DNA of 64,000 nt from assembly GCA_050950285.1 (NCBI GenBank), contig JBMNHG010000002.1, forward strand, positions 248,296 through 312,295, written 5' to 3'. The notes under the pieces are model-generated. The model did no database searches and was not told the DNA's origin. It saw only the letters and a list, made by a program, of their open reading frames with translations. The first letter of the stretch is position 1. The number at the start of each line of letters is the position of its first letter. This stretch comes from Kiritimatiellia bacterium (GTDB lineage Bacteria; Verrucomicrobiota; Kiritimatiellia; RFP12; JBMNHG01). The position numbers and the translations under genes were made by a program. Shown piece by piece: positions 10,380 through 48,958 of the stretch.

Positions 10380-10496
10380 CTGTTCGCAAACGGAATCATC
10401 GCCGCCATCATATCCATCCGCCCATTCTCCGTCAAACACCGTCTCGCATGGACAGCGGGCCGTTGCCAACTGTCCGGAAGAGTGTTTCCTGTATTC

Positions 10497-10570
10497 GGCT
10501 GGCGACAGGAGCGAGCGCCTGCTCGTCCCTTGTCTCCCGACCCTTGACGCCCCCCCGTCGCCAGCCGATT
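10497..10570. repeat. Near-palindromic GC-rich element in the divergent promoter region; related copy at 37795-37850
   Basis: Termini ggctggcgacagg...ccgtcgccagcc are inverted. Internal blocks gagcgcctgctcg and gggggcgtcaagggtcggga (reverse-complemented here) recur at 37795-37850. Confidence 0.5.
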
Positions 10571-14730: not shown

Positions 14731-14780
14731 TCCATCGTTCTCCTGTATCCTGTATCCCCATCACGAAAGGAACCTCCCCC

Positions 14781-15101
14781 ATGCCCGCCGAACTCACCGC
14801 CTCCACCTTCCAAGACGCCATCTCCCGGGGCGTCGTCCTCGTCGACTTCTGGGCCCCCTGGTGCGGCCCCTGCAGGATGCAGGGCCCCATCCTCGAACAG
14901 GTCGCCCCCGCCTTCGAAGGCCGCGCCACGATCGCCAAGCTCAACATCGACGATCCTTCGACCCAGAACATCGCGAAAGACCTCGGCATCCGCAGCATCC
15001 CGACCCTCGTCCTCTTCAAGGACGGCGCAGAGGTGGAGCGCTTCATCGGCCTCACCCGCGCCGACGCCCTCCAGGCGGCGATCACGTCCGCGCTGGCATG
15101 A
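14781..15101 (+). CDS. trxA: Thioredoxin
   Basis: WAPWCGPCR active site in a 106-aa product. Confidence 0.85.
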
Positions 15102-32975: not shown

Positions 32976-34964
32976 TCAGGATGCATGGAAGGTGCGGGCG
33001 CGGATCTTGGCGCGGACTTCATCGTCGAGGCGATGGTAGTATTCGGCGTAGCCGCCCACGCGCACGATGAGGTTCCGGTGGCCGTCGAGGTTCTTCTCCG
33101 CCTCTTCCAGCATGTCGCGCGACAGGCAGGTGATTTGCACCTGCATGCCCCCAAGCGAGAAGAACCCTTCGATGAGCGCCCGCAACGCGGGTTTCCCGAA
33201 GCCCGGCTGGAGGGTGAGGTTCAGCACGGGAATCCCGAGGGCGGCGGGGAGGTCCATCGCCGCCACGCTCTTCAGCAGCGCCGTCGGCCCGAGAGTGTCT
33301 TTCCCGTAGATCGCGCAAAGGGAATCGGCGAGCGCCTCCCCCGCCGCACGACCGTCCGGCGTGGCGCCCACGTAGCGGCCGCCCTGGCCGTAGGAGACGA
33401 AGAGGATCGACGCAGGCAGGAATCCAAGGCCGAAATGGGGTTTGCGGTTCCGAAGAAAGCCGAATATCTCGCGGGTGAAATCCCCGGCCAGCGCGTCGGC
33501 TTGCGGATGATTGATGCCGTGGCGCACGGGACAGGCCTTCATGCGGCGCAGGAAATCGGGATCGGAGGCCGCGAGTTTCGCGAGGAAGTCCTCTTTGGTG
33601 TAGTCTTGCCTCCGGTAGACGTGCTCCCGAAGCGCCAGCAGCGAGTCGACGGCGTTCACGATGCCGGCGAAACTGACGAGGCTCCAGGCGTAGCGGGCGC
33701 CGCCGTCGTTGAAGTCGCGTTCGTTGGCGATGCAGTCGTCCACGAGCAGCGTACGCATCGGGAGCGGGTTCCAGCGGGCGCGCTCGGCCTGCGAATTCGC
33801 GATTTCGCGCGTTACCGTGTCCACGGCGCCGGCGATGTCCGCCAGGTACGCGCGGTAGAAGTCGTCGAAGGTGGCGCATTCGGCCAGGCGGGCCTGGAGG
33901 GCCTTTTCGAAGAGGAAGGGCAGGTTGATGCCGGCATCGAGCGAGCCCACGTTCGAAAGCCCGGCGAGCATCGTCTCGGTGCAGCCGCCGCCGCAGAACC
34001 GCGACACGTCTTCGCGGCGGATTTCGGGGAAGCGGGCGAGGAGGCCGTCCACGATTCGCCGGCGGTTGTAGAACGAGGGCTGGGCCCCGCCGGCGAGGAT
34101 GCAGTCGAGCGCCTCGTCCCAGATTTCGTCGGAGGTGTCGTCGCCCACGAGCAGCTCGATCATCGGACGGCGAAGGCCCCGGACGGCGCGCAGGCAGGGA
34201 AGGACGAGCGGGTTGGGGGTCATCCCCACGGCCATCGAATAGGCGTCCGTGGCATCGACGATCTTGAACCATTCGCGGAGAACCGGCGTGGGGTCGCCGT
34301 CGCGTTCCGCGTCGTAGTAAGGGGCCAGGCCGTCGGCGAGGCATCCTTCGTTGTCGCAGCCGTCGAGGAAGAAGACGAAGTTCCAGCAAACCATGGCCTC
34401 GTAGAAATCGCGTGCCGGGGCGAAGGGGACGCGTTCGAGGGCCGCGACAAGGCGGGGAGCGGCGTTTTCGGAGCGGAGCTTGGCCAGAAGGCGCCCATGC
34501 CAGGCGCGGATGCCGGCCAGCAGGTCGAGAAGGCCGTCCCGCAGGCCGTCGTCTTCCATGGCCTTGACGCGCGCTTCGTAGCCGTCGAGCCCTTCGGCGA
34601 GCACCCGCTCGTAGTTCGGCGTGGAGTGGGTGTACATGTTGCCCGCGACGGAATGCTGCCATGGCACGGTGGACTGGTAGCGGAAGAAATCCGATTTCGC
34701 GAAGGTGTCCTTGAGCGCCGGATCGGCGGCTTCGAGACGTTCCCAGTCGACCGCGATCTGCAGGTACGTCGAACGCACCGCCACGTCGCAGGGAAGCGGC
34801 GAGCAGGGATAGAAGAGGCCGCCGCCATACGGGGGAAGCGGCGTCTGCTCGTAGTATCGGCGGAGGGCCCGGGCCTTGCGCGTGAAGAGGGGGCGCGTTT
34901 CGTCCTCGTAGAGTCCCGCGGCGTAGTATTCGCCGATACGGCGGAATCGTTCGGAAAGAGTCAT
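32976..34964 (-). CDS. Glycyl radical enzyme (PFL-like superfamily, GCxE-type active site)
   Basis: C-terminal glycine-radical motif RVGGYAEYYHRLDDE. Active-site loop ..RFCGGGCTETMLAG (Cys plus Glu as in eliminase-type GREs). 663 aa from the MTLSERF start, which is short for the family. Confidence 0.8.
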   Translation of the reverse strand: MTLSERFRRIGEYYAAGLYEDETRPLFTRKARALRRYYEQTPLPPYGGGLFYPCSPLPCDVAVRSTYLQIAVDWERLEAADPALKDTFAKSDFFRYQSTVPWQHSVAGNMYTHSTPNYERVLAEGLDGYEARVKAMEDDGLRDGLLDLLAGIRAWHGRLLAKLRSENAAPRLVAALERVPFAPARDFYEAMVCWNFVFFLDGCDNEGCLADGLAPYYDAERDGDPTPVLREWFKIVDATDAYSMAVGMTPNPLVLPCLRAVRGLRRPMIELLVGDDTSDEIWDEALDCILAGGAQPSFYNRRRIVDGLLARFPEIRREDVSRFCGGGCTETMLAGLSNVGSLDAGINLPFLFEKALQARLAECATFDDFYRAYLADIAGAVDTVTREIANSQAERARWNPLPMRTLLVDDCIANERDFNDGGARYAWSLVSFAGIVNAVDSLLALREHVYRRQDYTKEDFLAKLAASDPDFLRRMKACPVRHGINHPQADALAGDFTREIFGFLRNRKPHFGLGFLPASILFVSYGQGGRYVGATPDGRAAGEALADSLCAIYGKDTLGPTALLKSVAAMDLPAALGIPVLNLTLQPGFGKPALRALIEGFFSLGGMQVQITCLSRDMLEEAEKNLDGHRNLIVRVGGYAEYYHRLDDEVRAKIRARTFHAS

Positions 34965-35058
34965 GGCGGAAGAATACCACATTCCCCCGATCGGGCGCAC
35001 CCTCCGATTGGGACACCCGGTTGAACCGGCCGCCCGGCAAACACCTTGCCATTCGTTG

Positions 35059-37698
35059 TCAGTATCGTGGCCTGCCACGGGGAGGTTGACGTGAAGAAGG
35101 CACATCCCAATTGCGGCACTTCCTGCCGTCGGCATCGAAAAAACGGATGCGATGCAGGTTCGTGTCCAGAAACTTCAGCCGGAGGGAAAACCGCCGGCCT
35201 GCGCCGCATTCGCCGCCAATCGCTGGCAATGGGATCCGGACTTTATAGGTTGGCTTCCTGCAAAACTGGTAATCGTTCAGATCCATTCGCGCTGCCAATG
35301 AGGTCATGTCCGACTCTGCAATGCGGGTCCCGTTCAAGTCAAGTACCTCGACACGCGGGAACATGCCTGAAAGTCGAGCTTGCGAAAGCGCATTGTTGAC
35401 GCTGAAGAGCAGTGAACGTGAATCCTCGTCATGTGCAATGTTCCAAACCACCAGTCCGTTCTTGAAATGGAGCGACGGCGTGGCGACCGGATGGAACGAG
35501 GACAAGGAGAAATCCGTTCCGGAAACGGAGCGGAAGCGCAGCCTGTTGGGGATGTGATGGAAGTTGCAGTTGGCAGGGATGGGGCACCGAATGCCATGCC
35601 GCGCGTCCTCGAAGGAAAAAAGGCCAAGCGGGAATCCATCCAAGTCAACCTCGACAAAATCATCCGCAGGTTCATCCCCCGGCGGGCAATCGATCGAGAA
35701 ATCAATGACATTGTACCGACGGAGGATGTCGGGCCTGATGAACCGGAAGATTTCGTTCCGGGACACTTGCGGCGTGATGATCTGGTTGACGATGTAGCGA
35801 TCGTCTTCGACAATCGTCGAAAGATTGTCTTGGGAGAATCTCGTGCCATTCCATGGGGAGTCTGGCGATAGAAACGCCTTGTCGACGACAACCAGTGGGG
35901 TTGGCCAGACCATTTGCAGCAAATCGATGCCTTCGAGCCGGGATTTCTCATCGTCCGCATTGACTTTCGCACATATTTTTCGCGAAAGGTCCGGGAACGT
36001 ACCCTCCCAGGCGAAAACAAAGAAGTTTTTGTTTCGGGCAAGCTGCAGCATTTCACGCGAGGTGATTTCTCGATCGTGCATCGGGAAAACCGCGAGAACA
36101 GGCGGTTCGGGAAGGTTGTCGATATATTGGACCGAGGGCAGTCTGTCGATCGGCTCGAACCGGTGCAGGCCCGCACGGGCGGGGGTATGGGTGTCCGGCA
36201 GGCAGACTGATTCCACCCACACCGAGGCGAAAGCCAAGACAGGAATCGCCAGGGAGGCGAATCCCCGCAACTGCCTGTTGCGGACGCGACGGACAGAATC
36301 GAGCCATGAATCGAGTCCTCGTGCCGCCGCTACGACCATGAACAGCAGGACAAAGAACGAGAATCTCGATACAACGCGGAAGCCCCATAGCGCATGGCAT
36401 TGCCGATAGAGAGTCCAGTATATCCGGTTTTGAGCGACCGTGCCGATCGATCCGACGCAGAAACTGGGGCCAAACGAAAAAACCATGGCAAATAGGGATG
36501 CGCATCCCAGCCCCTTGAAAAAACAATCGTTCATGTCGCATCCGCGAACATCGAAGACAAAGACAAAGGCGACCGCCGCCGCGCACGCAATGTAGACGGA
36601 ACATACGAATGCGTTGATGCCAAAGGGCGTTTCCCCCGCGACATTTGCAGATACGCCTTGAACCAGAAACGCACACAAGGCCACGAGCAGGGTCCACAGG
36701 ATTACGTTCTGGGCCACGAATCGCTTGCCCGATCCGCGAACGGATGCGACGTGTGAACGAATCAACTCCCACGATGCCAGCAGGAAGACCGCGAGGGTGG
36801 GATATGCGCATGCTTCGTTTTGGATCGTCTTGTCGAATGGCGGCCATTTTACCCGATAGGGCGGCACGATATAGCTGGCTGGTTCCAGCACATGCCGTTT
36901 GACTTCCCCGATTTTCCGGACGAGCATGTTGCTGTCAAGGACCCTCGCATAGGGCCAGAGGAAATACCCTGCCAGAAGGATTCCCAGTACGCCTGCAACC
37001 GCGAGCGGGAGCCAGAACTTCCCGAACGATGGAAGTAATTCCTTCCAGGATTTGCGGAACAAGGGAATAACGATGAATGGCAGGAGGAACAACAGGAATA
37101 CCGCATGGTACAGCTCGGACATTGCCTGCAGCCACAGCGACAGGCAGCACGACACCGCATGGCCAATGCTTGGCCGCTTGAAGTAGCGAACCAGAAACAG
37201 CAGGAAGAGCATCACGCCAAAATTCAACTGCATGTTGAATTCGACGATATAGCGCAACTTGTACGGCAGGATCGTAAAGATTGCCGCCAACGTGAAACTC
37301 GCAATGCGCCCGACTCCCAACTCCTTCAGCAGAAGCCACATGCATGTTCCAGACAAGGCCCAGAACACGAGGAAGCAAATATTGTACGAGAGAATTGGGC
37401 CCGCATGGAAGACTCCCGCCAGGAAGGCGGCAAGGAAGGCGGGCGGATAATGCAACCCTTCGAAATAGAATCCCGAAGGATAGGGATAGAACATGTTAGT
37501 ATTGCCGTCAACCGGCAGAAGACGCCCGTGAAGGAGTTCCCGGGCCGTAAAATCCAGGCGCCAGGCATGCAATGGAGGATCCCAGTGGGCAAAGAGGCTG
37601 TCCCTGAAAGTCATGCACCACGGCCACGTCGCAAGGACAATGATGGCCGTCAATTCCAGAGTGACCAGAAGAAAAGGCAATAGGCGTTTCTTCTCCAT
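35059..37698 (-). CDS. 879-aa polytopic membrane protein (possible GT-C-like glycosyltransferase) with large C-terminal soluble domain; low-GC gene
   Basis: More than 12 hydrophobic helices in the first ~500 aa, then a ~370-aa hydrophilic domain. The base composition is clearly AT-richer than the flanks. Confidence 0.5.
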   Translation of the reverse strand: MEKKRLLPFLLVTLELTAIIVLATWPWCMTFRDSLFAHWDPPLHAWRLDFTARELLHGRLLPVDGNTNMFYPYPSGFYFEGLHYPPAFLAAFLAGVFHAGPILSYNICFLVFWALSGTCMWLLLKELGVGRIASFTLAAIFTILPYKLRYIVEFNMQLNFGVMLFLLFLVRYFKRPSIGHAVSCCLSLWLQAMSELYHAVFLLFLLPFIVIPLFRKSWKELLPSFGKFWLPLAVAGVLGILLAGYFLWPYARVLDSNMLVRKIGEVKRHVLEPASYIVPPYRVKWPPFDKTIQNEACAYPTLAVFLLASWELIRSHVASVRGSGKRFVAQNVILWTLLVALCAFLVQGVSANVAGETPFGINAFVCSVYIACAAAVAFVFVFDVRGCDMNDCFFKGLGCASLFAMVFSFGPSFCVGSIGTVAQNRIYWTLYRQCHALWGFRVVSRFSFFVLLFMVVAAARGLDSWLDSVRRVRNRQLRGFASLAIPVLAFASVWVESVCLPDTHTPARAGLHRFEPIDRLPSVQYIDNLPEPPVLAVFPMHDREITSREMLQLARNKNFFVFAWEGTFPDLSRKICAKVNADDEKSRLEGIDLLQMVWPTPLVVVDKAFLSPDSPWNGTRFSQDNLSTIVEDDRYIVNQIITPQVSRNEIFRFIRPDILRRYNVIDFSIDCPPGDEPADDFVEVDLDGFPLGLFSFEDARHGIRCPIPANCNFHHIPNRLRFRSVSGTDFSLSSFHPVATPSLHFKNGLVVWNIAHDEDSRSLLFSVNNALSQARLSGMFPRVEVLDLNGTRIAESDMTSLAARMDLNDYQFCRKPTYKVRIPLPAIGGECGAGRRFSLRLKFLDTNLHRIRFFDADGRKCRNWDVPSSRQPPRGRPRY

Positions 37699-37794
37699 GG
37701 GATTCTCTCCGTCAATTATTCCATACCGGCCATAATTTAGATAATAGGATTACTCTCCGCAAGTCTTTTTGTCGATCGATCGGCCGGCGACACT

Positions 37795-37850
37795 CGGCTG
37801 GCGACAGGGGGCGTCAAGGGTCGGGACGAGCGCCTGCTCGCCCGCTTGCG
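37795..37850. repeat. Second copy of the GC-rich promoter-region element seen at 10497-10570
   Basis: cggctggcgacagggggcgtcaagggtcgggacgagcgcctgctcg shares the 15-mer, the 20-mer and the gagcgcctgctcg block with the 10.5 kb copy, in rearranged orientation. Confidence 0.5.
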
Positions 37851-37958: not shown

Positions 37959-37967
37959 GTGGTGAGG
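37959..37967. repeat. Target-site duplication (left), GTGGTGAGG
   Basis: An identical 9-mer directly abuts both inverted-repeat termini. Confidence 0.7.
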
Positions 37968-37992
37968 GGGCGCATCTCCGTTTTGCTACCGG

Positions 37993-39249
37993 CTACGCTG
38001 GGACTGCTGCCTGGGCGCAGCAGTGGTGGAGCTCCCCGTTGACGTACCATATGTACGCCTTCAGGAATGACTCGAGCCCGACTGCGGACCAGAACTGGCC
38101 GCACCGCTTGAAGCGGTTCTGCAACTGCGAACAAAGCGATTCGACCGCGCCGCTTCCGATGGGGCGCCCCAGCCTGCGCTGCCTGAGGTAGTCCATGTGG
38201 TCCTTGTGCTTCATGAAATATTCCGTCTCGCGTTGCACGGCCTTCGCGTCCCAGCATCCATCGCCTTCGTGCGCCTTGAGGATATCGAGTAGCGTCTTCC
38301 CCCCGTACCGCTTGAGCTTCCTGCAACGCTCCGAAAGCCATGCCTTTCGCGCGGGCTCGTCGTCCGGGAAGAGCGCCGCGGCGAGCGCGCCGAGATGCTC
38401 GGTGGCGTGGTAGTAGTCCAGCGTCCCTTCGGCGATGGTGGCGAACCTGTCCTCGAAGATGTTCCAGAGGTAGGTGCCGCCGTCCATGACGATGTAGACG
38501 AACTTCGCCTGCATCATCCCCATCCGCCGCGCCTCGAATTCGACCTTCCGGCCGAAGTCGACCGGATCCGTGCCGGCCGGCATGCAGACTGCGTGCTTGG
38601 TGACAAGCACGCGCCTTCCCCCGCTTGTCTCCGCGGCGTGGGCGAGCTTGAAGATTGTCGCCGACTTCATCTCGCGCCATTCCACGCGCTCGGCGGCTCT
38701 TGGGTTGCGCTTCCCCCATCCCGCCCCGCGGTGCCGGGCGAACCAGCCGTCCATCATGATCACCAGCGTGTCCTCGCTCCCCGCCGCCTCCTCGCAGAGC
38801 CGGGGAAGCTTCCCTTCCTCGCAGCGCCCGGCGATGTCCCTGACGACGTCCATGACCTTGTCGTCGCTGACGGGGCACCCCCATTCCCTGCAGAGCTTCG
38901 AGGCTTTCTCGAACGATCCCGTCTCCATGGCCGTCGCCGCGATCCTCATCTCGAACGCGGGGGAGACGCAGCCGCGCCTGCCGCCGAAAAAGCGCAGGCG
39001 CATCGGCGTCTCGTACCGACCGGACGACCGGCAGAGCCCGTTCTTCACTTTCAGTTCAACCGGCCCGAACCCGGTCGCGACCCTCATGCCGATCGTCCTG
39101 GTCTTGACGAGCGGCTTCCCGTCGCTTCCCTCGGAGGGGGTGCTCTCCGCGAGCCTCTGCAGGTAGTCTTCGTACTCCCTGCGGGCCAGTTCCATGTGTT
39201 TGCGCTGGATTGCCTTTTCGGCTTCGATCAGGTTTTTGCAGGTTTCCAT
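37993..39249 (-). CDS. Transposase, ISKra4-family-like
   Basis: 418 aa with a characteristic ..LDYYHATEHLGA.. region and an RNaseH-like DDE core. Lies inside the IR-bounded element. Confidence 0.7.
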   Translation of the reverse strand: METCKNLIEAEKAIQRKHMELARREYEDYLQRLAESTPSEGSDGKPLVKTRTIGMRVATGFGPVELKVKNGLCRSSGRYETPMRLRFFGGRRGCVSPAFEMRIAATAMETGSFEKASKLCREWGCPVSDDKVMDVVRDIAGRCEEGKLPRLCEEAAGSEDTLVIMMDGWFARHRGAGWGKRNPRAAERVEWREMKSATIFKLAHAAETSGGRRVLVTKHAVCMPAGTDPVDFGRKVEFEARRMGMMQAKFVYIVMDGGTYLWNIFEDRFATIAEGTLDYYHATEHLGALAAALFPDDEPARKAWLSERCRKLKRYGGKTLLDILKAHEGDGCWDAKAVQRETEYFMKHKDHMDYLRQRRLGRPIGSGAVESLCSQLQNRFKRCGQFWSAVGLESFLKAYIWYVNGELHHCCAQAAVPA

Positions 39250-39259
39250 TGTCTTTCCT

Positions 39260-39315
39260 TCCTTTCGCGCTTGATACTATAGCATTCGAATGCTATAGCA
39301 TCAAGCGCGAAAGGA
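39260..39315. repeat. 56-bp near-perfect palindrome between transposase and accessory ORF
   Basis: tcctttcgcgcttgatactatagcattc|gaatgctatagcatcaagcgcgaaagga, with a single mismatch (a39276/c39299). The right arm contains the AAGGAG Shine-Dalgarno (39311-39316) of the accessory ORF. Confidence 0.7.
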
Positions 39316-39323
39316 GAAACCAG

Positions 39324-39620
39324 ATGGAAAAAGACACCTCAGGCGATGAAGAGAAGATTCGTGCCATCAAAGAGCAGATCGTGGCTCTCGGGCCCATGCG
39401 CCCCGGACGGCTCAGCGTGCAATACCAAAAGCCCAAGGAGAAGGCCGGGCCGTTCTACCAGATCAGCTACACGATCCAGAAGCGAAGCCGCTCGGACTAT
39501 GTACGCGAAGCCGATCTGGAACGTGTGAAGGCAGAACTCGAAAACTACCAGACGTTCAAGCGCCTTTGCGAAGAACTGGTTCTGGCCTCGCTGGCACTGG
39601 CAAAGTCGCGACAACGCTAG
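39324..39620 (+). CDS. IS-borne accessory ORF (99 aa), unknown function
   Basis: Good SD 8 nt upstream. Charged, coiled-coil-like protein (MEKDTSGDEEKIRAIKEQIVALGP...). Inside the IS boundaries. Confidence 0.45.
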   Translation: MEKDTSGDEEKIRAIKEQIVALGPMRPGRLSVQYQKPKEKAGPFYQISYTIQKRSRSDYVREADLERVKAELENYQTFKRLCEELVLASLALAKSRQR

Positions 39621-39683
39621 CCCCTCAAAACCTGCCCCAGTCTTCCCGATGGACGAGGTGGGGAGCAAAACGGAGATGCGCCC

Positions 39684-39692
39684 GTGGTGAGG
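39684..39692. repeat. Target-site duplication (right), GTGGTGAGG
   Basis: Identical to the 9-mer at 37959-37967. Confidence 0.7.
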
Positions 39693-39800: not shown

Positions 39801-41693
39801 ATGGCGGGTTGTTTCCGAAAGTTGCATACGCTCCGCTCCGCGCGGCTCGCCGCGGTGTCGGCCGGCGCCGGGCTCTCCCCCGGCGGCACGAACACCCTCC
39901 GCCTGCTCCGCGGTTGCTTTTCCGTCAGCCCGCCGCCGCTCGACGGGGCGGACGCCGCGCGGCTTGCCGAGGCGGTCCGGGCCAAGCCCGCCTGTTCCGC
40001 CGCCCTGTGCGGCCTGCTGTCCGGGCGCCGCGAAGGCTGGCTGGCCGAGGACGTCCGGGCGCGGCATCTGCTGGACTCCGGGAAGGCCTCCGAGGCCGCC
40101 GCCGCGTGGGAGGCCATGCTCCGCCGCCGCCGCGGCCCGCCCGACCGCATCGCCTTCGCGCGCTGCGAGGCGCTGGCCGCCTGGAAGCCGGGGAAGGGCA
40201 TCGAGGCGCTGGAGGAGTGGCTGGAGCGCTACAAGGACTCGCCGCTGCGCGAGCGCGCCGCCGCCTGCCACGCCCTGCTGCCGGCCCGCCATGGCGACCC
40301 GGCCGAGGCGGCATCCCGCCTCGGGGCCTTCCTCGGGGAATACCCCGGCAGCCGCTTCGCGCCCGAGGCCCGGCAGGCGCTGGCCAGGGCGCGCGGCGCA
40401 TCGGACCGGCTGGAACAGCTCCGGGCGGCGCAGGCCGCCAAGGAGGAGAGGCGCCGGCGCGACCCGGCGTCGGCCGACCTCGAACGCGCCGAGTCGCTCC
40501 TCTCCCAGGGACGCCACGCCGACGCCGAAAAGGCCTTCCTGTCCTTCCGCGACCGCCGCCGCCATCCGCTGTGGGGGCGCGCCTGGCATGGCCTCGGCAA
40601 AGCCCGCCACGCCCGGGGCGACACGCAGGGCGCTCTCGCCGCCTGGGACGACCTCTGGCGGCGCTCGCTGGCCGACACCAACGTCCTGTGCGCCGCCCGG
40701 GCCCGCCGCGCGGCGGGCGACGCCTGGCTCGAGGATCTCGGCGAGCCGGCCCGCGCCCTGAAGGCCTACGACGAAGCCGCGTCCCGCACCGACTTTTCCG
40801 ACCCCGCCTTCGACCTCAACCGCGGGCTCGCCCTGCTGATGCTCGGGCGCGCCCCGGAGGCCGCGGCCCTCTTCACCCGCCGCCGCGACGCGTCCGCCGG
40901 CGACAAGGCCGAGTTCCTGCGCTGGGACCGCCTCGCGAAGGAGTGCGCCGCCGGACGCCTGGCGCCGCCCCCGCGCGGCCTGCTCCCCGACCAGCGCCGC
41001 GCCCGTACCGACCTGGCGATGGCCGACGCCCTCCTCGCGGCCGGCGAGCCGGCCCGCGCCCTGAGGCTCTACCGCCGCGCGTCCGCCCCCCTGGCGGGCC
41101 ACGAGGGGGCCGACCGGTGCGACCTGGGCATGGCGCTCGCCCTGGCCGCCCTCGGCCGGCCGAAGGAGGCGCTCGCCCTCTACGGGCGTTTCACGGGCGA
41201 ACACGGGCGCAGCCCGCTGGCCGCCGGAGCCCTGCTCCGCGCCGGCACGCTCTGCGCATTGCCCCGCGTGAACGACTTCAAAGGCGCCTGCCAGTGGTTC
41301 GCCCGGGTCGTCGAAAACCACCCCGGCACGCGCGAGGCCGAGGCGGCGGAGTTCTATGCCGCCAAAAGGCTCCACGACCCCTTCGACGACGACCAGCGAA
41401 ACGACCGTCCCCGATTCCCGCATGGCAAGCCCGTCCATCCCGACATCACGCTCTCCCGACATCACGCTCCATTGGGAGGCGGGGAACCCGCTCGCCCTGC
41501 TCGGGGGAACCACGGTTTACACGAACAAAATCGAGATCGACGCCGGGGAGGTCGACTGGCCCCTGGATTACGCCGTCATCCCGCGTCATTCGGCCATTTC
41601 CTTCGCCATCGCCGCCGAGGGCCAGGCCGCCGAGGGCGGCAAGGCGGTGGACATCGTCCACGGGCGCGTCGTCGACGTGGACCTCGACGTTGA
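39801..41693 (+). CDS. TPR-repeat protein; probably the N-terminal part of a single TPR-trunk-toxin gene interrupted by a 16-bp duplication
   Basis: TPR-like helical repeats throughout. The last real residues (..KPVHPDITL) match the N-terminus of module 2 (KPVNPHITLHW), and the tail after nt 41455 is out-of-frame read-through. Removing one 16-bp repeat unit fuses this frame to 41422..43458. Confidence 0.6.
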   Translation: MAGCFRKLHTLRSARLAAVSAGAGLSPGGTNTLRLLRGCFSVSPPPLDGADAARLAEAVRAKPACSAALCGLLSGRREGWLAEDVRARHLLDSGKASEAAAAWEAMLRRRRGPPDRIAFARCEALAAWKPGKGIEALEEWLERYKDSPLRERAAACHALLPARHGDPAEAASRLGAFLGEYPGSRFAPEARQALARARGASDRLEQLRAAQAAKEERRRRDPASADLERAESLLSQGRHADAEKAFLSFRDRRRHPLWGRAWHGLGKARHARGDTQGALAAWDDLWRRSLADTNVLCAARARRAAGDAWLEDLGEPARALKAYDEAASRTDFSDPAFDLNRGLALLMLGRAPEAAALFTRRRDASAGDKAEFLRWDRLAKECAAGRLAPPPRGLLPDQRRARTDLAMADALLAAGEPARALRLYRRASAPLAGHEGADRCDLGMALALAALGRPKEALALYGRFTGEHGRSPLAAGALLRAGTLCALPRVNDFKGACQWFARVVENHPGTREAEAAEFYAAKRLHDPFDDDQRNDRPRFPHGKPVHPDITLSRHHAPLGGGEPARPARGNHGLHEQNRDRRRGGRLAPGLRRHPASFGHFLRHRRRGPGRRGRQGGGHRPRARRRRGPRR

Positions 41694-43458
41694 CGCCAAC
41701 CACGACGGCAAAATTGATGACGCCGACGAGCCCTTGGAGGTGGACCCCGGCGGCTATGTGTGCGTCGGAACCAACAACCTGACGCCGGTCACGCTCAAGT
41801 TGGAGCCCGTCGGCCTGCCCGGCAAACTGACCCTCTCGGCGACGATGGGTGGGGACCGAATCCGCATCTGGAAAGACGCCGGGCGCGCGACCGAGGTGAT
41901 ATTGACCAATGGCTGCGCCCAGGTGGCTCCCGGCACGCTCTACGTCGAGGGGGTCACCAACAGCGCCGCCCTCCGCGACGTGGAACTCCGCCTCGAATAC
42001 GACGAGAACCCGGAGGGCCAGAATAACCGCCTCTTCAAGTGCGAGGACAGGGTGAAGCTGACGGCCGTGAAGGTGGACTTGGATATCGACTCGGACAACA
42101 ACGGAGCCATCGAAGAAGCAGACGAGGCCCAAGAACTTACCGAACCGGGCAAGTTGATCTATCTGAACCATGATGACGACAACAAGAACGACATAGAGGA
42201 CAAGGCCGAGAACACTGCAATTGTCACTGATGAAGATGACCTCCAACCAATCAAGCTTGCATTTTCACCAAACATCGCTGGCGGAAAGATAATCCTTGCT
42301 GCTCCAAGTGGTGGGTCTCGGATTCAAGTTTGGGGAAACTCCACAAAAGGTGTTGCGAGTGAGAAAGTTGACCTGCCGAAGACGTGGACAATAGGCACTG
42401 ACGCTGTCCCTGCAACACTCTATGTCGAGGGCATCGACCCCGGTGCTGCTCAATTGAAATTGGCTTACGAGGTTAACTCGGTCGAAGTTTGCAAGGACGA
42501 GATCAAGTTGGGCATCGTCAAAATTGAGTTCAAGGAACGGGGCGATACAAAATACGGTTATGATAACGGGACCGTTGACAACAACCCTGTTCCCAAATCG
42601 GTTGACACTCCCCCACAGAAGTATGACTGGGTAAACGTTGACAGAGACAACAAGACGACAGATGTGGACGTAGAGATTACTCCGGCGTCGTATGCCAAGT
42701 ACGTTAATTTTATTAGCAGCGATGACGCAAAAACCACATGCAATCCTGTCGCAGCAACTGCAAATCCGCAGAAATTGACCATAACCGGCACAGCCTCGGG
42801 GACATCCCATGTCCAGACGCGACTTGGAACCACAACAGGTGCTAAAGGCACTCGGTTGAATGTGGCCTGTTACAAGCTGGCAGCCCTTAATGTCAATTTC
42901 TATAAGGTAAGTGCCACGGGGCTTGCGCCTGATGGTACCACGGCGGAACAATTCGAAAGTGGCGCGAATGCGTTCCTCAAGCGGGGTGTCAGTGAACTAT
43001 CACTGACCGACAACGGCACCACAATAACTAACTACGATGACAACGCAAATTCTAAACTAGATATCGATGCAACGGCGGGGGATGGCGGAAGTGAATGGGT
43101 CAAGGTGACAGCGGCACTAGGGGCTCCTGTTGGGATGAAACTGCTTCATGTAAAGGCCTTGCGCGTTAACATCGGGGGAACATGGGTCAACGCAACAGGC
43201 TTACGCTATGGTGATTGGACGCTGGTTTCTGACGAGTCAACGAGCAAAGTCAGAACTGTCGCCCATGAGATGCTTCACAAGCTAGGACTGAAAGATACAG
43301 GCCCCAGTGGGAGCAACACTGCAAACATCATGTACTATATGAGCAATGGCACAAAGTACTTTGTGGGGTATTTCAAAGTGGAAGGCGTTCAGACTGGGTC
43401 TGGCACGTCTTACACCCCAAAACAACACGAGCTACAGTGGGAAATGATTTATCGGTGA
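41422..43458 (+). CDS. Polymorphic-toxin-like module 1: conserved trunk + C-terminal HExxH (zincin-like) region
   Basis: Trunk ..GKAVDIVHGRVVDVDLDVDANHDGKIDDADEPLEVDPGG...LTLSATMGGDRIRIWKDAGR..EVILTNGCAQVAPGTLYVEGVTNSAALRDVELRLEYDENP. Reiterated ~100-aa modules. C-terminal ..VAHEMLHKLGL.. (43264-43278). Confidence 0.65.
   Translation: MASPSIPTSRSPDITLHWEAGNPLALLGGTTVYTNKIEIDAGEVDWPLDYAVIPRHSAISFAIAAEGQAAEGGKAVDIVHGRVVDVDLDVDANHDGKIDDADEPLEVDPGGYVCVGTNNLTPVTLKLEPVGLPGKLTLSATMGGDRIRIWKDAGRATEVILTNGCAQVAPGTLYVEGVTNSAALRDVELRLEYDENPEGQNNRLFKCEDRVKLTAVKVDLDIDSDNNGAIEEADEAQELTEPGKLIYLNHDDDNKNDIEDKAENTAIVTDEDDLQPIKLAFSPNIAGGKIILAAPSGGSRIQVWGNSTKGVASEKVDLPKTWTIGTDAVPATLYVEGIDPGAAQLKLAYEVNSVEVCKDEIKLGIVKIEFKERGDTKYGYDNGTVDNNPVPKSVDTPPQKYDWVNVDRDNKTTDVDVEITPASYAKYVNFISSDDAKTTCNPVAATANPQKLTITGTASGTSHVQTRLGTTTGAKGTRLNVACYKLAALNVNFYKVSATGLAPDGTTAEQFESGANAFLKRGVSELSLTDNGTTITNYDDNANSKLDIDATAGDGGSEWVKVTAALGAPVGMKLLHVKALRVNIGGTWVNATGLRYGDWTLVSDESTSKVRTVAHEMLHKLGLKDTGPSGSNTANIMYYMSNGTKYFVGYFKVEGVQTGSGTSYTPKQHELQWEMIYR
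41439..41470 (+). repeat. 16-bp tandem duplication (cccgacatcacgctcY x2) at the TPR/trunk junction
   Basis: Units at 41439-41454 and 41455-41470, with 15/16 identity. Deleting one unit gives an uninterrupted ORF 39801..43458. Confidence 0.7.
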
Positions 43459-43475
43459 GGAAAGGTGCTTTACAG

Positions 43476-44417
43476 ATGAGAACGTTCTTGGCATGTTTTA
43501 CTTTCTTCGCGTTCCAGGCCTTGGTGCGCGCAGAACCTGGCACTGTCGCAGAGGTCCTGAATAACCTCCGGAAGGGAGATGCCCGGGGGTTGCGGACTGA
43601 TCAGTACACAAATGCGGCGAGTGCCGTTGCCTTTCTGGAGAACATCGGTGTTCTGGAAGACGAGAAGATCCGACTGAAGGTGGTGCGGTTCTCGGCAACG
43701 CTGATGCGTCGGGCGGCAAGAGCGGGCTCGCAGCAGGACGAACAGAACGTAGAAGCCTTCACTGGCCAGATGGTGAAGATCCTTAAGGCTGATCCATCTA
43801 GGCGTATCCGGGAAGAGGCCGCGAAGAGTCTTCTGGAAATGGTCTCCCCGCGTGTTCTCGATCGCTATCACGCCGTTCTACGTCTTGCGGCCGAGGAAAG
43901 GAAGGACATCGCTACGCTTCTTGTCTGCGCATCACTGCATTCCTGCGATGCAACGTGGTTGGCGGAATTGGTGCGTACAATGAAACCGGAGTCCCGGATG
44001 GAGAAGCGCCAAATCGACAGCATTCTGGCGCGGTGCGGGGATCAGGCTGCAACAGATCGTCTCATTGATGAAGCAGGTCATGCGCAGGGAATGAGCGATG
44101 TTGAGATTGGTGAGTTGGTCGCCGCTTTGGCCTTTGTGCCTTCCGAACGGGTTCAGATGTTTCTTGGACTAGGTCTTCGCTCTGACACTGTTGTTTCACT
44201 ACCCGGGGGAGGCGCGATTCCCTGGCGCAACTGCTGTGCCCGTTCTTTGGTCCGAATGCACAGGCACGACGAGAGTTTTCCTGTAAAGAGGGACGACTAC
44301 ATGTATAGTGACGATGAGCTTGACAGAATCGAACAGTGGAGTGTGGTTACTCTCGGCATTGCCCCCCGTAGTGGAACACGGAGGAGCTTGAAAGTGACAC
44401 CAGGTATTCATCAGTAG
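43476..44417 (+). CDS. Signal-peptide partner protein 1 (candidate immunity; HEAT/armadillo-like repeats)
   Basis: Starts 18 nt after the module 1 stop. Signal peptide (MRTFLACFTFFAFQALVRA), alpha-helical repeat composition, and AT-richer DNA than the core genome. Confidence 0.55.
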   Translation: MRTFLACFTFFAFQALVRAEPGTVAEVLNNLRKGDARGLRTDQYTNAASAVAFLENIGVLEDEKIRLKVVRFSATLMRRAARAGSQQDEQNVEAFTGQMVKILKADPSRRIREEAAKSLLEMVSPRVLDRYHAVLRLAAEERKDIATLLVCASLHSCDATWLAELVRTMKPESRMEKRQIDSILARCGDQAATDRLIDEAGHAQGMSDVEIGELVAALAFVPSERVQMFLGLGLRSDTVVSLPGGGAIPWRNCCARSLVRMHRHDESFPVKRDDYMYSDDELDRIEQWSVVTLGIAPRSGTRRSLKVTPGIHQ

Positions 44418-44531
44418 TGGCACAGGCATAGGTTCGCGGCAAGAGCGAAGCACCCGGAACCCTCTCTACTGGGTGTCCCCTCCGCTCTAGTTGTCTTTGG
44501 CTCATGCAATGATTTCATTGTCGTCTTTCAA

Positions 44532-46253
44532 ATGAACATCTGGCACAAAGAATCTGTAAAACCCGTGAATCCGCACATCACGCTCCACTGGGCGGGGGTG
44601 CGCGAACTGTGCCTTCTGCACGGGGACGGGACGTTGTTCCCGAACGGCGGGCAGATCGACTCGCGCGCCGTTCCCTCCTGGCCCCTCCGCTTCCGCGTCG
44701 GGCCGCTCGCGCCGACGACGGAGTTCGTGGTGCGCCTTTTCGGCGAAGCCGACAACGTGACGGGCGAGAAGGCGGTGGACATCGTCCACGGGCGCGTCGT
44801 CGACGTGGACCTCGACGTTGACGCCAACCACGACGGCAAAATTGATGACGCCGACGAGCCTTTGGAGGTGGACCCCGGCGGACTGGCCTGCGTCTGCACG
44901 AACAAACTGACCCCGATCATGCTCACGCTTCAGCCCGCCGGACTGACCGGCAGGCTGACCCTCTCGGCAACGATGGGAGGGGACCGAATCCGCATCTGGA
45001 AAGACGCCGGGCGCATGATCGAGGTGGTATTGACCAATGGCTGCGCCCAGGTGGCTCCCGGCACGCTCTACGTCGAGGGGGTCACCAACAGCGCCGCCCT
45101 CCGCGATGTGGAGCTGCGCCTCGAATACGACGAGAACCCGCCGAACCAAAACAACCCCCTTTTCAAGTGCGAGGACAGGGTGAAGCTGACGGCCGTGAAA
45201 ATAGATTTTGTCACTCCCGCCGGTGATCCGGTAAATGCCGCCGTGCAGTCGGGCGACGGGCAAAACGAATTCACCTACTCGACAGCCACTCCCGGCGTTC
45301 TGACGATGAACCTGAAGGCGCACGTCACACCGAGCGGTATCGCCAACCAGATCAAGGGCCTATGCCTGTTTACGGTTGATATGATCGCCGGTTCCACCTT
45401 GGCTTGGGGCTCGTCGAATCCTAACGGCAAGCCGACAGCGAACGGTGATGACCTGTTGGCGACGGTCACGTTCACCGGTTTGCCCGCGAACAATTCCGAC
45501 TTCGGGGCCAAGAAGGCCGCTATCCACTTCAACGCCAGCAAGCAGGATGAAGCGAACTACGAAGTATTCTTTCCCCGAGATGTGGCGAACAATCCTGGTG
45601 GTTCTGATCCAAATTGGTTCTACTACTGGGGTCAGGTTTATGTGAATGCGAACGTTCAATATGTGGCCGCTGCGGCGGCCGGACGCGTACCTGCCATGAC
45701 AGGCTGGACGTACAACTCTGTACCAAGCAAAACTCGCATTGAAATCGGTAGCGGACATCCCGCAAAATACAAATCCTATGGCATCGGAGAGGAAGCGTCG
45801 GGCATTGATCGCTACATAATGACGGGAATACATGAGGAGAAGCATGTGGCACAGATTGCTGCCGCAGATGCTCTTCTGCCTACCAGCGGTGCCGATTCCT
45901 TTCGCTTCGGTTGGTCATGGAATCAATCCACTCATAATCATTGGACAAAGGGGCCTGATGGGCAATGGGGTGTTGCCGGAGTTGATGATGACGGGAATGG
46001 TGTAGTTGATGACGCAGCTGTGGCACCACCCTTTGAACCTGGGAACGGTGACGACATCAGCCTCGACCGCGCAACATGGCCGTGGTGGCCAAATACGTGG
46101 ACACTGCCCGGCGGAGTTTACGCCACCATCCATCCCATTGAAGGCGAGGCCGTCAAGGCTGCGGATGACGCAATGAATGAAAACGACTATGCGCCCCAAG
46201 ATTGGGGCAAGCCCGGCAAGAACCACAAGACGGTAAACAAGTGGGATGATTGA
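44532..46253 (+). CDS. Polymorphic-toxin-like module 2: same trunk, unrelated C-terminal region with HEEKH
   Basis: Nucleotides 44773-44883 differ from 41640-41750 by 1 nt. The trunk diverges after ..FKCEDRVKLTAVKIDF. C-terminal ..GIHEEKHVAQ.. (45831-45845). Begins only 10 aa before the trunk homology (MNIWHKESVKPVNPHITLHW). Confidence 0.65.
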   Translation: MNIWHKESVKPVNPHITLHWAGVRELCLLHGDGTLFPNGGQIDSRAVPSWPLRFRVGPLAPTTEFVVRLFGEADNVTGEKAVDIVHGRVVDVDLDVDANHDGKIDDADEPLEVDPGGLACVCTNKLTPIMLTLQPAGLTGRLTLSATMGGDRIRIWKDAGRMIEVVLTNGCAQVAPGTLYVEGVTNSAALRDVELRLEYDENPPNQNNPLFKCEDRVKLTAVKIDFVTPAGDPVNAAVQSGDGQNEFTYSTATPGVLTMNLKAHVTPSGIANQIKGLCLFTVDMIAGSTLAWGSSNPNGKPTANGDDLLATVTFTGLPANNSDFGAKKAAIHFNASKQDEANYEVFFPRDVANNPGGSDPNWFYYWGQVYVNANVQYVAAAAAGRVPAMTGWTYNSVPSKTRIEIGSGHPAKYKSYGIGEEASGIDRYIMTGIHEEKHVAQIAAADALLPTSGADSFRFGWSWNQSTHNHWTKGPDGQWGVAGVDDDGNGVVDDAAVAPPFEPGNGDDISLDRATWPWWPNTWTLPGGVYATIHPIEGEAVKAADDAMNENDYAPQDWGKPGKNHKTVNKWDD

Positions 46254-46274
46254 TTCTTTTCGGAGGAGAACATT

Positions 46275-46952
46275 ATGAATAATCGATTAGTGACAATGTT
46301 GCAGGCGATTGTGTTGATGGTTATATTGCTAACCACAGGTCGAGTGTTTGCTGGAAATGCCGAAGTGGAAAACATAGACATGGTTGATACGAAACAGTTG
46401 CTTTCAGCGCAGACGATGGAGCGGAGTCAGGCGCTGGACAGGTTGACTGCAAAATATCGCGAGGTCTCGGCGTCGCTCTTAAAGACACTGGAGGAGGCCA
46501 AGACCGAGTTTAGAACGGATCGCCGTTATCATTCGCCTCTTCACTCCGCCATACTGGCAGTCGATGCATGGCAGGTGATTGATGCCGATGCGCTTCTCCT
46601 TTCGATGGTTGACTACGAGTTAGATCCAAGTTCCTTGCCATTGGGAATGGATGTACCAGGCGACTATTTTTATCCCGCAGCCAAGACGTTGGTCCGCTTG
46701 CGCGTGGACATGGCGAAAGTGGAACGAGCGCTTGGAGCCACAGAGGACCCGAAAGCGCTGAGGATATTGACATGGGTGTTACTTGAACGAGGAGAAGACG
46801 TCGAGAAGGCGAAGATGGCTTTAGCCGATGCAAGCGGCAAAAGTCATGGGGCCACGGAAAAGCGGAATATCAGCGAAGCGCTAGAGCTGCTCAACAACCC
46901 TTCGGAGTTGTTGCCGATGCCGTCGAGGGGTGACCATCCTTCATCGAAGTGA
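46275..46952 (+). CDS. Signal-peptide partner protein 2 (candidate immunity)
   Basis: Starts 22 nt after the module 2 stop. N-terminal MNNRLVTMLQAIVLMVILLTTGRVFAG. Low GC, no similarity to partner 1. Confidence 0.55.
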   Translation: MNNRLVTMLQAIVLMVILLTTGRVFAGNAEVENIDMVDTKQLLSAQTMERSQALDRLTAKYREVSASLLKTLEEAKTEFRTDRRYHSPLHSAILAVDAWQVIDADALLLSMVDYELDPSSLPLGMDVPGDYFYPAAKTLVRLRVDMAKVERALGATEDPKALRILTWVLLERGEDVEKAKMALADASGKSHGATEKRNISEALELLNNPSELLPMPSRGDHPSSK

Positions 46953-47186
46953 CTGCTTTACGGCCTACGCACCTGACACGCCGCGTGCTGGAAGAAAGGC
47001 CACGCGGCGCGCCAGGTGCTCCGGCCTTGCTCCGGCGCTATCGCGCTTCCGGGGCACCTCCGCGCTGACGCGCTCCGGTGGTGGACTCGCTCACACGTTG
47101 CCCTTTCCGGCGCACCCCCGTGTTGCCTCCAGGCCGACACCTTGCATACATTGACAAATGGAATGACGGATTGATACGCTGTCCGC

Positions 47187-48941: not shown

Positions 48942-48958
48942 AAGGTAGGAAACAAATC

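Follow-up and report, generated by a model that had tools for sequence, protein, structure and literature searches.

How did a gene of markedly low GC content come to stand between GC-rich neighbours in a Kiritimatiellia genome, and what does its product do? The gene encodes a membrane protein of 879 amino acids and lies in a stretch of 64,000 nucleotides that we analysed as a whole (hereafter the window). The protein is identical to the NCBI protein ACOX5G_01345 from a metagenome-assembled genome (MAG) of Kiritimatiellia, and is labelled ‘hypothetical’ in every source. Taken jointly, the evidence is best explained, with a probability of roughly 0.7, by a GT-C-fold glycosyltransferase that faces the periplasm and whose gene was acquired laterally. 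The features on which the argument draws are collected in Table 1.

Table 1 Features of the GT-C locus and its surroundings (window positions).
Feature	Position	Strand	Remarks
Second copy of the GC-rich element	10495..10568	+	110–180 nt upstream of a class II aldolase gene
Glycyl radical enzyme (GRE), 662 aa	32976..34964	-	Downstream neighbour, 94-nt spacer; GC3 0.83, native
Low-GC segment	35039..37781		Maximum-likelihood change points; gene plus 83-nt AT-rich leader
CDS of the 879-aa GT-C-fold membrane protein	35059..37698	-	Starts with ATG
Periplasmic C-terminal region, residues 498–879 (382 residues)	35062..36207	-	
Transmembrane GT-C core, residues 1–497	36208..37698	-	From AF2 secondary structure, hydropathy and loop charge counts
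Asp40 codon	37579..37581	-	Motif HW-D-PP-L-H-A-W directly after TM1
AT-rich 5′ leader/promoter region	37699..37781	-	47% GC in 37700–37799
GC-rich element	37780..37830	-	Edge of low-GC segment; two tandem 12-mers GTCGCC(G/A)GCCGA plus 18-mer CCGACCCTTGACGCCCCC
Insertion sequence (IS), 1,716 bp	37968..39683		270 nt upstream of the GT-C start codon
ISKra4/ISLre2-like transposase in the IS	37993..39249	-	The IS also holds a 98-aa ORF

Base composition and setting of the locus

A two-change-point likelihood fit over 33–39 kb (log-likelihood gain of 43) delimits a segment of 2.74 kb with 54.9% GC, compared with 66.7% in the flanks (0.667, 0.549 and 0.666 to the left, inside and to the right). Of the two change points, one falls 20 nt beyond the stop codon and the other 83 nt ahead of the ATG, which bears out an earlier, sequence-only reading of this DNA in which the change was described as abrupt at both gene ends. 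An AT-rich run quoted there as part of the gene lies at 37715–37751, in the upstream leader and outside the coding sequence; a Shine–Dalgarno-like GGAGAG precedes the ATG by a few nucleotides. By its composition the segment, with about 55% GC, is foreign to a genome that has about 66–67%. The gene itself has a GC content of 0.555, compared with 0.653 over the window as a whole, and 1-kb bins on either side lie at 0.65–0.67.

Because synonymous sites show the shift, it is not an effect of amino acid composition: GC at third codon positions (GC3) is 0.672 (z = −5.0 relative to the 0.862 ± 0.038 of 20 genes that look native), and five other genes for multi-pass membrane proteins in the window have values of 0.81–0.92. 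In codon usage the gene lies at a distance of 1.58 from the native pool, where long native genes lie at 0.44–1.0. Nor is low GC a trait of the family, as homologs elsewhere match their flanks, with a difference between gene and flank of +0.005 ± 0.035 at 31 loci (range −0.073 to +0.083) compared with −0.11 here. The proposal that the gene was likely acquired horizontally is thus supported, with codon usage clearly unlike that of other membrane-protein genes of the genome. Lateral transfer of the gene together with its AT-rich leader from a lower-GC bacterium, with its composition not ameliorated since, is the most likely origin, although not a proven one; the donor lineage is unsampled.

The downstream GRE gene served as a synteny anchor. 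Its orthologs at 78% and 72% identity both stand without the GT-C gene beside them, and around neither does any other synteny with the window survive, so that no clean empty site can be defined; the spacers that precede the GRE genes could not be aligned between the window and these relatives. No ortholog in the same context was found in the nearest relatives, as the sequence-only reading had expected of an acquired gene. The nearest GRE ortholog (78%) belongs to the MAG JAZQOE, but the GT-C homolog of that genome is only 33% identical and sits on another contig, behind a GT2–methyltransferase gene. A search for a native paralog that used the family member of this MAG as query gave a best match of 45% and none from this species; the family is in general very divergent, with no relative above 45% even for this protein, which weakens the argument from 33% against 78%. 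Around 35.0 and 37.8 kb, a search for flanking direct repeats or att-like sites returned only 12–20-mers at chance level, and there was no tRNA gene or Rfam family near the locus and no integrase.

The locus is a strain-variable region. The junction between the GRE and GT-C genes occurs in six of the six independent assemblies retrieved (12 contigs carry the protein), with a single synonymous SNP in the GT-C gene across the six and an identical protein in every copy found. Upstream, the IS is bounded by 23-bp terminal inverted repeats and a 9-bp target duplication, GTGGTGAGG, at 37959–37967 and 39684–39692. Its base composition is native, and its empty site is seen in one other assembly (L002), while three more (L003, L005 and L006) cease to match the window at 37967. 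We considered the IS as the vector of the GT-C gene and rejected it on account of its own target duplication, the empty site in other strains and its native composition; it is a later, separate and independent insertion. Just past the IS and a TPR gene of 78–82% GC lies a larger low-GC island (about 41.9–49.8 kb). The proteins of the island, the TPR protein and the transposase have no homolog in 57 related loci from other genomes, and we therefore treat the adjacency of the island and the GT-C gene as coincidental. Searches of PHROGs and PADLOC with the IS ORFs and island proteins gave no match.

The GC-rich element that borders the segment had been described as a copy of one at 10.5 kb. That copy is real, but short: BLAST aligns 34 nt at 94% identity (E = 8e-9), and the shared core measures about 36 nt. 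The 18-mer is identical at 10537–10554 (+) and 37807–37824 (−), where 0.03 matches would be expected by chance, and the copy at 10.5 kb carries the 12-mer as an inverted pair on both sides of it. The metagenome collection holds 18 exact matches to the 18-mer; their flanks are all unrelated, and we therefore attribute these matches to chance.

Fold, conservation and likely sugar donor

The protein has a core of 13 transmembrane helices with a cytoplasmic N terminus, followed by the periplasmic region of residues 498–879, in agreement with the earlier description of more than 12 helices and a soluble C-terminal domain of 370 residues. The AF2 model has a pLDDT of 71.7 and a pTM of 0.73, with pLDDT values mostly of 70–95 in the core helices. 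The first periplasmic loop (residues 31–100) follows TM1 and contains two short helices, 40–56 and 84–97. In the C-terminal region, residues ~515–740 consist of an alpha/beta part and a beta-sandwich, and residues 741–879 are a poorly modelled extension that is common only to relatives of about 900 amino acids.

A Foldseek search with this model matched the set of GT-C enzymes at E values from 1.6e-6 to 1e-3, with modest TM-scores to the solved structures (0.33–0.48). The multi-pass core can be superposed on solved GT-C enzymes, and its 13 helices lie within the range of 7–13 that defines the superfamily. As in other GT-C proteins, TM1 is followed by a long extracytoplasmic loop that contains short helices and an acidic residue conserved in the family. 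The suggestion of a GT-C-like transferase is supported by these matches; for a receptor, offered as the other possibility, nothing speaks. The acidic residue, Asp40, does not vary in alignments of 13 and of 46 family members, and its position agrees with that of the catalytic Asp of GT-C enzymes (PMC11127046), which makes it a candidate for the catalytic base or for a metal ligand. Every other conserved polar residue likewise lies in a periplasmic loop or at a helix end, at the periplasmic face of the membrane: E153-F-N-M-Q157, S194/E195/Y197, R261/E265/E295 and R441/R445.

Sequence models place the protein less readily. It has no match in Pfam, NCBIfam (E ≤ 1), PHROGs or PADLOC, a sequence search of the PDB with two profiles gave no real match, and the viral folds of BFVD gave nothing at E ≤ 1e-3 and hence no phage link. 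Ten relatives had no NCBIfam match, and in Pfam matched only members of the GT-C clan, all below threshold. A profile search, by contrast, finds about 18,000 cluster representatives of a family with the signatures HWDPP(L/F)HAW and EFNMQ, which occurs in PVC bacteria (commonly in Kiritimatiellia), Desulfobulbia, Auribacterota and beyond. The closest homolog shares 37% identity with the window protein across its full length, and 46 aligned family sequences share 17–35%. The family is thus large, unnamed and uncurated, and the gene is of an ordinary kind; the window copy forms a deep, lone branch beside a clade whose members follow a GT2–methyltransferase fusion gene.

The neighbourhoods of the relatives bear on the donor. 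In three of them (P0002, P0003 and P0008) a GT2 gene lies immediately upstream and overlaps or abuts the GT-C gene; P0011 has a GT2 gene and a second GT-C gene downstream, and P0009 has a UbiA gene upstream and a phosphatase gene downstream. A domain scan of 29 sequences from 31 genome loci (23 upstream ORFs and six in-frame N-terminal extensions) identified six with methyltransferase domains (the GT2–methyltransferase fusion type), five with GT2, four with UbiA and two with HAD. The GT2s are most similar in NCBIfam to AglJ, PpgS, Dol-P-hexose transferase and ArnC, and the UbiAs to decaprenyl-phosphate phosphoribosyltransferase, in each case below the curated cut-offs. The combination of UbiA, phosphatase and a GT-C enzyme with a carbohydrate-binding module is a published three-component pathway (PMC11127046). 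Judged by these neighbours of its relatives, the window enzyme would use a lipid-phosphate-linked sugar on the extracytoplasmic side as its donor. As tblastn found no UbiA or GT2 homolog within the 64-kb window, and no flippase partner was present either, its activity would rely on genes elsewhere, and the donor synthase that this orphan GT-C needs would be encoded elsewhere in the genome.

From GT-C enzymology and the genes adjoining relatives we infer the following mechanism. The 13 transmembrane helices would form the catalytic core, and the periplasmic C-terminal region comprises beta-sandwiches resembling carbohydrate-binding modules. Once a polyprenyl-phosphate-sugar has reached the periplasm by flipping, the enzyme would transfer a single sugar from it to a glycan of the cell envelope that the C-terminal domain holds, with Asp40 in its putative role as base or metal ligand and conserved Arg and Tyr residues gripping the lipid phosphate. 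A more far-reaching reading, which as a whole we consider doubtful, would make the HWDPP(L/F)HAW/EFNMQ proteins a new GT-C family at the level of CAZy, the core clade of which receives its donor, possibly a methylated polyprenyl-phosphate hexose, from a dedicated GT2–SAM-methyltransferase fusion; the window GT-C would then be a laterally acquired orphan specificity module that re-decorates the envelope glycan of this Kiritimatiellia strain. This module would stand beside a polymorphic toxin-like cassette array and might, for example, alter recognition by phages or by the toxins of competitors.

Alternative explanations

Were the gene instead a long-resident native one, its low GC could stem from, for example, low-expression selection, relaxed constraint or a local bias in mutation where recombination is frequent. 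Such a history would suit a gene that is intact and encodes the same protein sequence in every copy found, a segment free of any flanking mobility signature, a family common in Kiritimatiellia and other PVC bacteria, and the nearby island as an instance of low-GC DNA that persists at the locus. It is nevertheless improbable, given GC boundaries within 20–83 nt of the gene ends, a shift that reaches synonymous sites, homologs in 31 other genomes that match their flanks, an adjacent GRE gene and IS of native composition, and a family member in the nearest relative that is only 33% identical and located elsewhere. That the low-GC segment is foreign to the genome through an assembly or binning error is conceivable for a sequence that comes from a MAG, yet we find it hardly credible: each of the two junctions is found again, at 99.95–100% identity, in independent assemblies that stem from several samples and pipelines, the GRE/GT-C junction and the upstream GC-rich region each occur in all six contigs retrieved, one of these contigs spans 147.5 kb and the NCBI contig spans 1.08 Mb.

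For the protein, the two alternatives concern what a GT-C fold is used for. An oligosaccharyltransferase of the STT3/PglB/AglB type (GT66) would transfer a pre-assembled glycan from polyprenyl diphosphate to periplasmic proteins. We consider this quite improbable, as the protein has no sequence similarity to these enzymes, no match to the Pfam STT3 model up to E = 1 and, in the C-terminal domain, no WWDxG motif (what the family conserves is W564-x-G566, ‘WGG’, without the Asp); AftD, AftA and ALG12 are nearly equal in structural score; and the relatives adjoin genes resembling polyprenyl-monophosphate-sugar-synthase GT2s and UbiA phosphoribosyltransferases, which points to monosaccharide donors on polyprenyl monophosphate, and not clusters for the assembly of lipid-linked oligosaccharides. 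The invariance of the first-loop Asp and of Arg, Glu and Tyr residues at the periplasmic face across 46 sequences argues against a GT-C-shaped protein devoid of enzymatic activity (a scaffold, a receptor or a subunit that binds the substrate, comparable to PIGU/GAB1 in GPI transamidase), as do catalytic GT-C enzymes that score far above PIGU and relatives that are operonic with sugar-donor synthases; a role of this kind is very improbable.

Relation to known systems

The reading as a periplasm-facing GT-C glycosyltransferase gives a class of function to a protein annotated as hypothetical and to its large unnamed family, which merits a curated model. The operons that join a GT2–methyltransferase gene or a UbiA gene (with or without a phosphatase gene) to a GT-C gene provide testable hypotheses on the donor. 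Within this genome, the GT-C gene marks a short and probably foreign piece of DNA at a locus that varies between strains, and its product probably alters the cell surface. Laterally acquired periplasmic GT-C enzymes are well known in the modification of O antigens and cell walls, and the finding is therefore expected and would not surprise a specialist.

Among the families of the superfamily, the protein has no sequence-model match to ArnT/PMT (GT83/GT39; Pfam PMT and PMT_2). A link to YfhO (PF09586), which the sequence-only reading had proposed to pursue, is at most remote: the protein has no match at E ≤ 1, and two of ten relatives match below threshold (E of 0.005–0.04; 12.7–15.7 bits against a cut-off of 28.5). 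Some relatives of 650 amino acids match YfhO, PTPS_related (PF10131) and Mannosyl_trans4 (PF15971) weakly over TM2–TM7 (E of 0.004–0.04, below gathering scores), which is consistent with a distant shared ancestor in the GT-C clan. In the three-component pentofuranose system of Citrobacter youngae (GT136), the GT-C protein ORF12 has 11 transmembrane helices and a D31/E34/Y35 motif (PMC11127046); ORF12 as described is set apart from the window protein, with its 13 helices and HWD40PPLHAW. The arrangement of that system (UbiA synthase, phosphatase and flippase) is absent from the window and is seen in a different clade of the family. GT136 and the mycobacterial arabinofuranosyltransferases AftD/AftA/EmbC, GT-C enzymes with carbohydrate-binding modules, are among the closest known systems; the window gene, which has no UbiA or phosphatase neighbour, stands outside that clade.

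Serotype-converting Gtr systems consist of a flippase (GtrA), a GT2 synthase of Und-P-Glc (GtrB) and a serotype-specific GT-C enzyme (GtrC). The GT-C enzyme that determines specificity is laterally mobile, often AT-shifted, and can use the donor of a shared synthase. The window gene differs from these systems in that it has no sequence relationship to them, no phage context (PHROGs and BFVD) and no adjoining gtrA or gtrB. Together with ArnC/ArnT, they nevertheless supply our working model, in which a GT2 would make a polyprenyl-phosphate-sugar and a periplasmic GT-C enzyme would place the sugar on an envelope glycan.

Composition and origin of the GT-C gene

The sequence-only reading had described the gene for an 879-amino-acid membrane protein (here the GT-C gene, after the membrane glycosyltransferase fold of its product) as strongly AT-shifted, with an abrupt change at both ends, and its composition bears this out. 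The GC content of the whole window is 65.3%, and 1-kb bins stand at 0.56–0.57 across 35–38 kb versus 0.65–0.67 on either side. A two-change-point likelihood fit over 33–39 kb placed the edges of the low-GC segment at 35039 and 37781 (GC of 0.667, 0.549 and 0.666 across the fitted segments). These edges lie 20 nt past the stop codon and 83 nt before the start codon, so that the unit comprises the gene and its AT-rich leader. The AT-rich run quoted in that reading lies at 37715–37751, upstream of the start codon and not within the gene. The GC shift sits at synonymous sites: GC3 is 0.672, compared with 0.862 ± 0.038 for 20 native-looking genes of the window (z = −5.0), and the host-favoured codons CTC, TTC, ATC, CGC and GCC are all relaxed. 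Because GC3 is 0.81–0.92 in five other multi-pass membrane-protein genes of the window, this deviant codon usage is not a membrane-protein effect.

Nor is low GC a trait of the family, as the GC of homologous genes minus that of their flanks is +0.005 ± 0.035 across 31 loci (range −0.073 to +0.083), versus −0.11 here. The best homolog in any collection has 37% identity over the full length, and the 47 homolog genome loci belong to Kiritimatiellia, Lentisphaerae, Verrucomicrobiota, Auribacterota and Desulfobulbaceae. Orthologs of the downstream neighbour, a glycyl radical enzyme (GRE) gene that served as synteny anchor, are 78% and 72% identical to it, and neither has a GT-C gene next to it. 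JAZQOE, the metagenome-assembled genome (MAG) of the 78% ortholog, has a family member of only 33% identity, located on another contig behind a GT2–methyltransferase gene; this member, used as a query, returned no ortholog from the species of the window.

The deviant composition, the homologs that match their flanks and the lack of a GT-C gene beside the GRE orthologs support the earlier proposal of a likely horizontal acquisition; the earlier suggestion of a GT-C-like transferase is supported as well. The GT-C family is divergent everywhere, which limits the claim of lateral acquisition; the genomes with the GRE orthologs have no further synteny with the window, so no clean empty site is definable, and the flanks of the low-GC segment contain no repeats, tRNA or integrase. 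An assembly chimera was ruled out: each of the six independent assemblies that were retrieved contains both junctions (99.95–100% identity), and across these the GT-C gene differs by one SNP, which is synonymous. Periplasmic GT-C enzymes that move laterally are already well known.

Mobile and variable surroundings

A complete insertion sequence (IS) with an ISKra4/ISLre2-like transposase lies 270 nt upstream of the GT-C start codon. We rejected it as the vector of the GT-C gene, given its own target duplication, its empty site in metagenome contig L002 and its native composition; it is a later, independent event. Three further contigs (L003, L005 and L006) cease to match the window at the same point as the empty site, and the insertion is polymorphic among metagenome contigs. 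The IS also encodes a 98-amino-acid, lower-GC ORF (39324–39620) with no family match.

Features of the window
Feature	Position	Strand	Remarks
First gene, direct repeats	1–77/1009–1085; 392–422/1400–1430		spacing exactly 1008 nt; 82–87% identity
GC-rich element, copy 1	10495–10568	+	
Stop-free frame	12459–15101	+	880 aa; rRNA adenine dimethylase, S-adenosylhomocysteine hydrolase, thioredoxin domain
GRE gene	32976–34964	−	662 aa
GT-C gene	35059–37698	−	879 aa; 55.5% GC
GC-rich element, copy 2	37780–37830	−	
IS element	37968–39683		1,716 bp; 23-bp terminal inverted repeats; 9-bp target duplication GTGGTGAGG
TPR-repeat ORF	39801–41693	+	extreme GC, 78–82%
Second low-GC island	41356–49735	+	48–58% GC
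Island repeats	41634–42086; 44762–45214; 47266–47629		
IS1634-family transposase fragment	49921–50997	+	358 aa; profile positions 33–185 of 483

The GC-rich element that borders the low-GC segment is built from the 12-mer GTCGCC(A/G)GCCGA and the 18-mer CCGACCCTTGACGCCCCC. It had been called a copy of an element at 10.5 kb, which it is, but the common core is merely ~36 nt. Within the window, all four instances of the 12-mer GTCGCCAGCCGA fall in the two copies, as a tandem pair at 37.8 kb and an inverted pair at 10.5 kb, with the 18-mer at both. Each copy lies 80–180 nt upstream of a start codon, and the genes that follow have AT-rich leaders. The element could be an operator/promoter module or a small mobile repeat. 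Exact matches to its 18-mer in the metagenome collection were discounted as chance matches.

The IS aside, the GT-C gene is oriented divergently from the TPR-protein gene, which leads into a second, strain-variable low-GC island. In the window the TPR ORF overlaps, in a different frame, a 700-amino-acid ORF (from 41356); in contig L001 it is a single 1035-amino-acid gene fused to another cassette set (DUF7689, DDE_Tnp_1), and L002 lacks the TPR portion (39856–41357) and has a 710-amino-acid gene that retains the N terminus MAGCFRKLH. The locus has thus been rearranged between strains of one species. The island, bounded on the right by the IS1634-family fragment, holds three large genes, all paralogs (700, 573 and 584 amino acids), and behind each of them a small gene (326, 225 and 265 amino acids; at least two with signal-peptide-like N termini). 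The large genes have a ~450-nt segment in common (75–90% identity) and differ at their C termini, two of the three with HExxH motifs (HEMLH and HEEKH). The arrangement is reminiscent of a polymorphic toxin/immunity array with orphan cassettes; the island proteins had no match in Pfam, NCBIfam (large proteins only), PHROGs or PADLOC. In codon usage the island is similar to the GT-C gene (distance 0.80). In other genomes, however, GT-C homologs are not accompanied by any of the island proteins. We regard the two as joint residents of a variable region rather than parts of a functional unit.

Elsewhere in the window, the GRE is short and PFL-like, falls far under all NCBIfam equivalog cut-offs (best match, the PFL2/glycerol dehydratase subfamily) and has no adjoining activating radical-SAM gene. 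It has more than 100 relatives of 645–678 amino acids at ~50% identity, the few with named sources being from Clostridia or Ruminococcaceae MAGs, and may represent an uncharacterised GRE subfamily. The direct repeats in or around the first gene (96–1469; K319L-like PKD domain) suggest that a ~336-codon unit was duplicated internally or in tandem. The 880-amino-acid frame is probably several adjacent genes that share a frame, not a fusion.

A large uncurated family with a GT-C fold

In its exact form the protein is annotated in a Kiritimatiellia MAG as a ‘hypothetical protein’, which is also the only source name we encountered for any family member, and it matches nothing in Pfam or NCBIfam even at E = 1. 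A word-indexed search found only 12 relatives (27–37% identity), and a profile of these sequences matched 18,110 proteins at E ≤ 1e-3 (3,357 at E ≤ 1e-30) among 1.84 billion cluster representatives. Ten relatives gave only sub-threshold Pfam matches, to YfhO, PTPS_related and Mannosyl_trans4; there was no NCBIfam match among the relatives scanned and no genuine match in a PDB sequence search with two profiles. The protein therefore belongs to a large family that is unnamed in any curated resource.

The AlphaFold2 model (13-sequence alignment; pLDDT 71.7, pTM 0.73), in which the membrane core and residues 520–740 are modelled well and residues 741–879 poorly, agrees with the GT-C fold in Foldseek (E of 1.6e-6 to 1e-3). 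Helix positions, hydropathy and loop charges indicate 13 transmembrane helices, an N terminus inside and periplasmic residues 498–879, in keeping with the more than 12 helices and 370-residue soluble C-terminal domain noted previously. Across 46 sequences (17–35% identity to the window protein), P26, D40, P72, R261, G410, R441, R445 and P539 are invariant and W46, R171, S194, Y197, E265, E295 and G566 nearly so, with all conserved polar residues on the periplasmic face. Asp40 (HW-D-PPLHAW) directly follows TM1, the position of the catalytic Asp of GT-C enzymes (PMC11127046), and is by this inferred role a candidate catalytic residue.

Neighbours of relatives and a proposed function

In three relatives (P0002, P0003 and P0008) the start of the GT-C gene adjoins or overlaps a GT2 gene; P0011 is followed by a GT2 gene and a second GT-C gene, and P0009 has a UbiA-family gene before it and a metallophosphatase gene after. 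The scan of neighbours took in 23 upstream ORFs and 6 in-frame N-terminal extensions, 29 sequences in all, drawn from 31 genome loci. Methyltransferase domains, of the ~505-amino-acid GT2–SAM-methyltransferase fusion type, occurred in 6 of the 29, GT2 in 5, UbiA in 4 and HAD in 2. The GT2s are most like polyprenyl/dolichyl-phosphate sugar synthases (AglJ, PpgS, Dol-P-hexose transferase and ArnC) and the UbiAs most like decaprenyl-phosphate phosphoribosyltransferase, with every GT2 and UbiA score under the curated cut-offs. The fusion directly precedes the GT-C homolog in at least eight loci (L007, L010, L017, L023–L026 and L030) that span Kiritimatiellia, Verrucomicrobiota and Lentisphaerae; fusions from genome loci have 53–63% mutual identity. 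They may synthesise a modified lipid-linked sugar donor. The results are of more use at the level of the family, which lacks a curated model and whose recurrent GT2–methyltransferase and UbiA operons lead to testable donor hypotheses.

A neighbour-joining tree places the window protein by itself on a long branch, basal to the GT2–methyltransferase clade. No GT2 or UbiA partner occurs within the 64-kb window, which makes this copy an orphan; its donor would have to be supplied from elsewhere. The gene is intact and foreign in composition, and encodes an orphan glycosyltransferase with the GT-C fold. That it might be an oligosaccharyltransferase is a weakened alternative: the WWDxG motif is absent, with WGG in the family instead, and the kind of genes adjoining the relatives argues against it.

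Those genes match the scheme of Gtr/Arn-type and GT136/mycobacterial three-component pathways, by which a cytoplasmic enzyme puts a sugar onto polyprenyl phosphate, a flippase exports the loaded carrier and a periplasmic GT-C enzyme, often aided by a CBM, moves the sugar to an envelope glycan. Because the neighbours fit this scheme, we interpret the window protein as a transferase of this kind, most likely a periplasmic GT-C enzyme that uses a polyprenyl-phosphate-linked sugar, as in the Gtr/Arn and GT136/mycobacterial systems.
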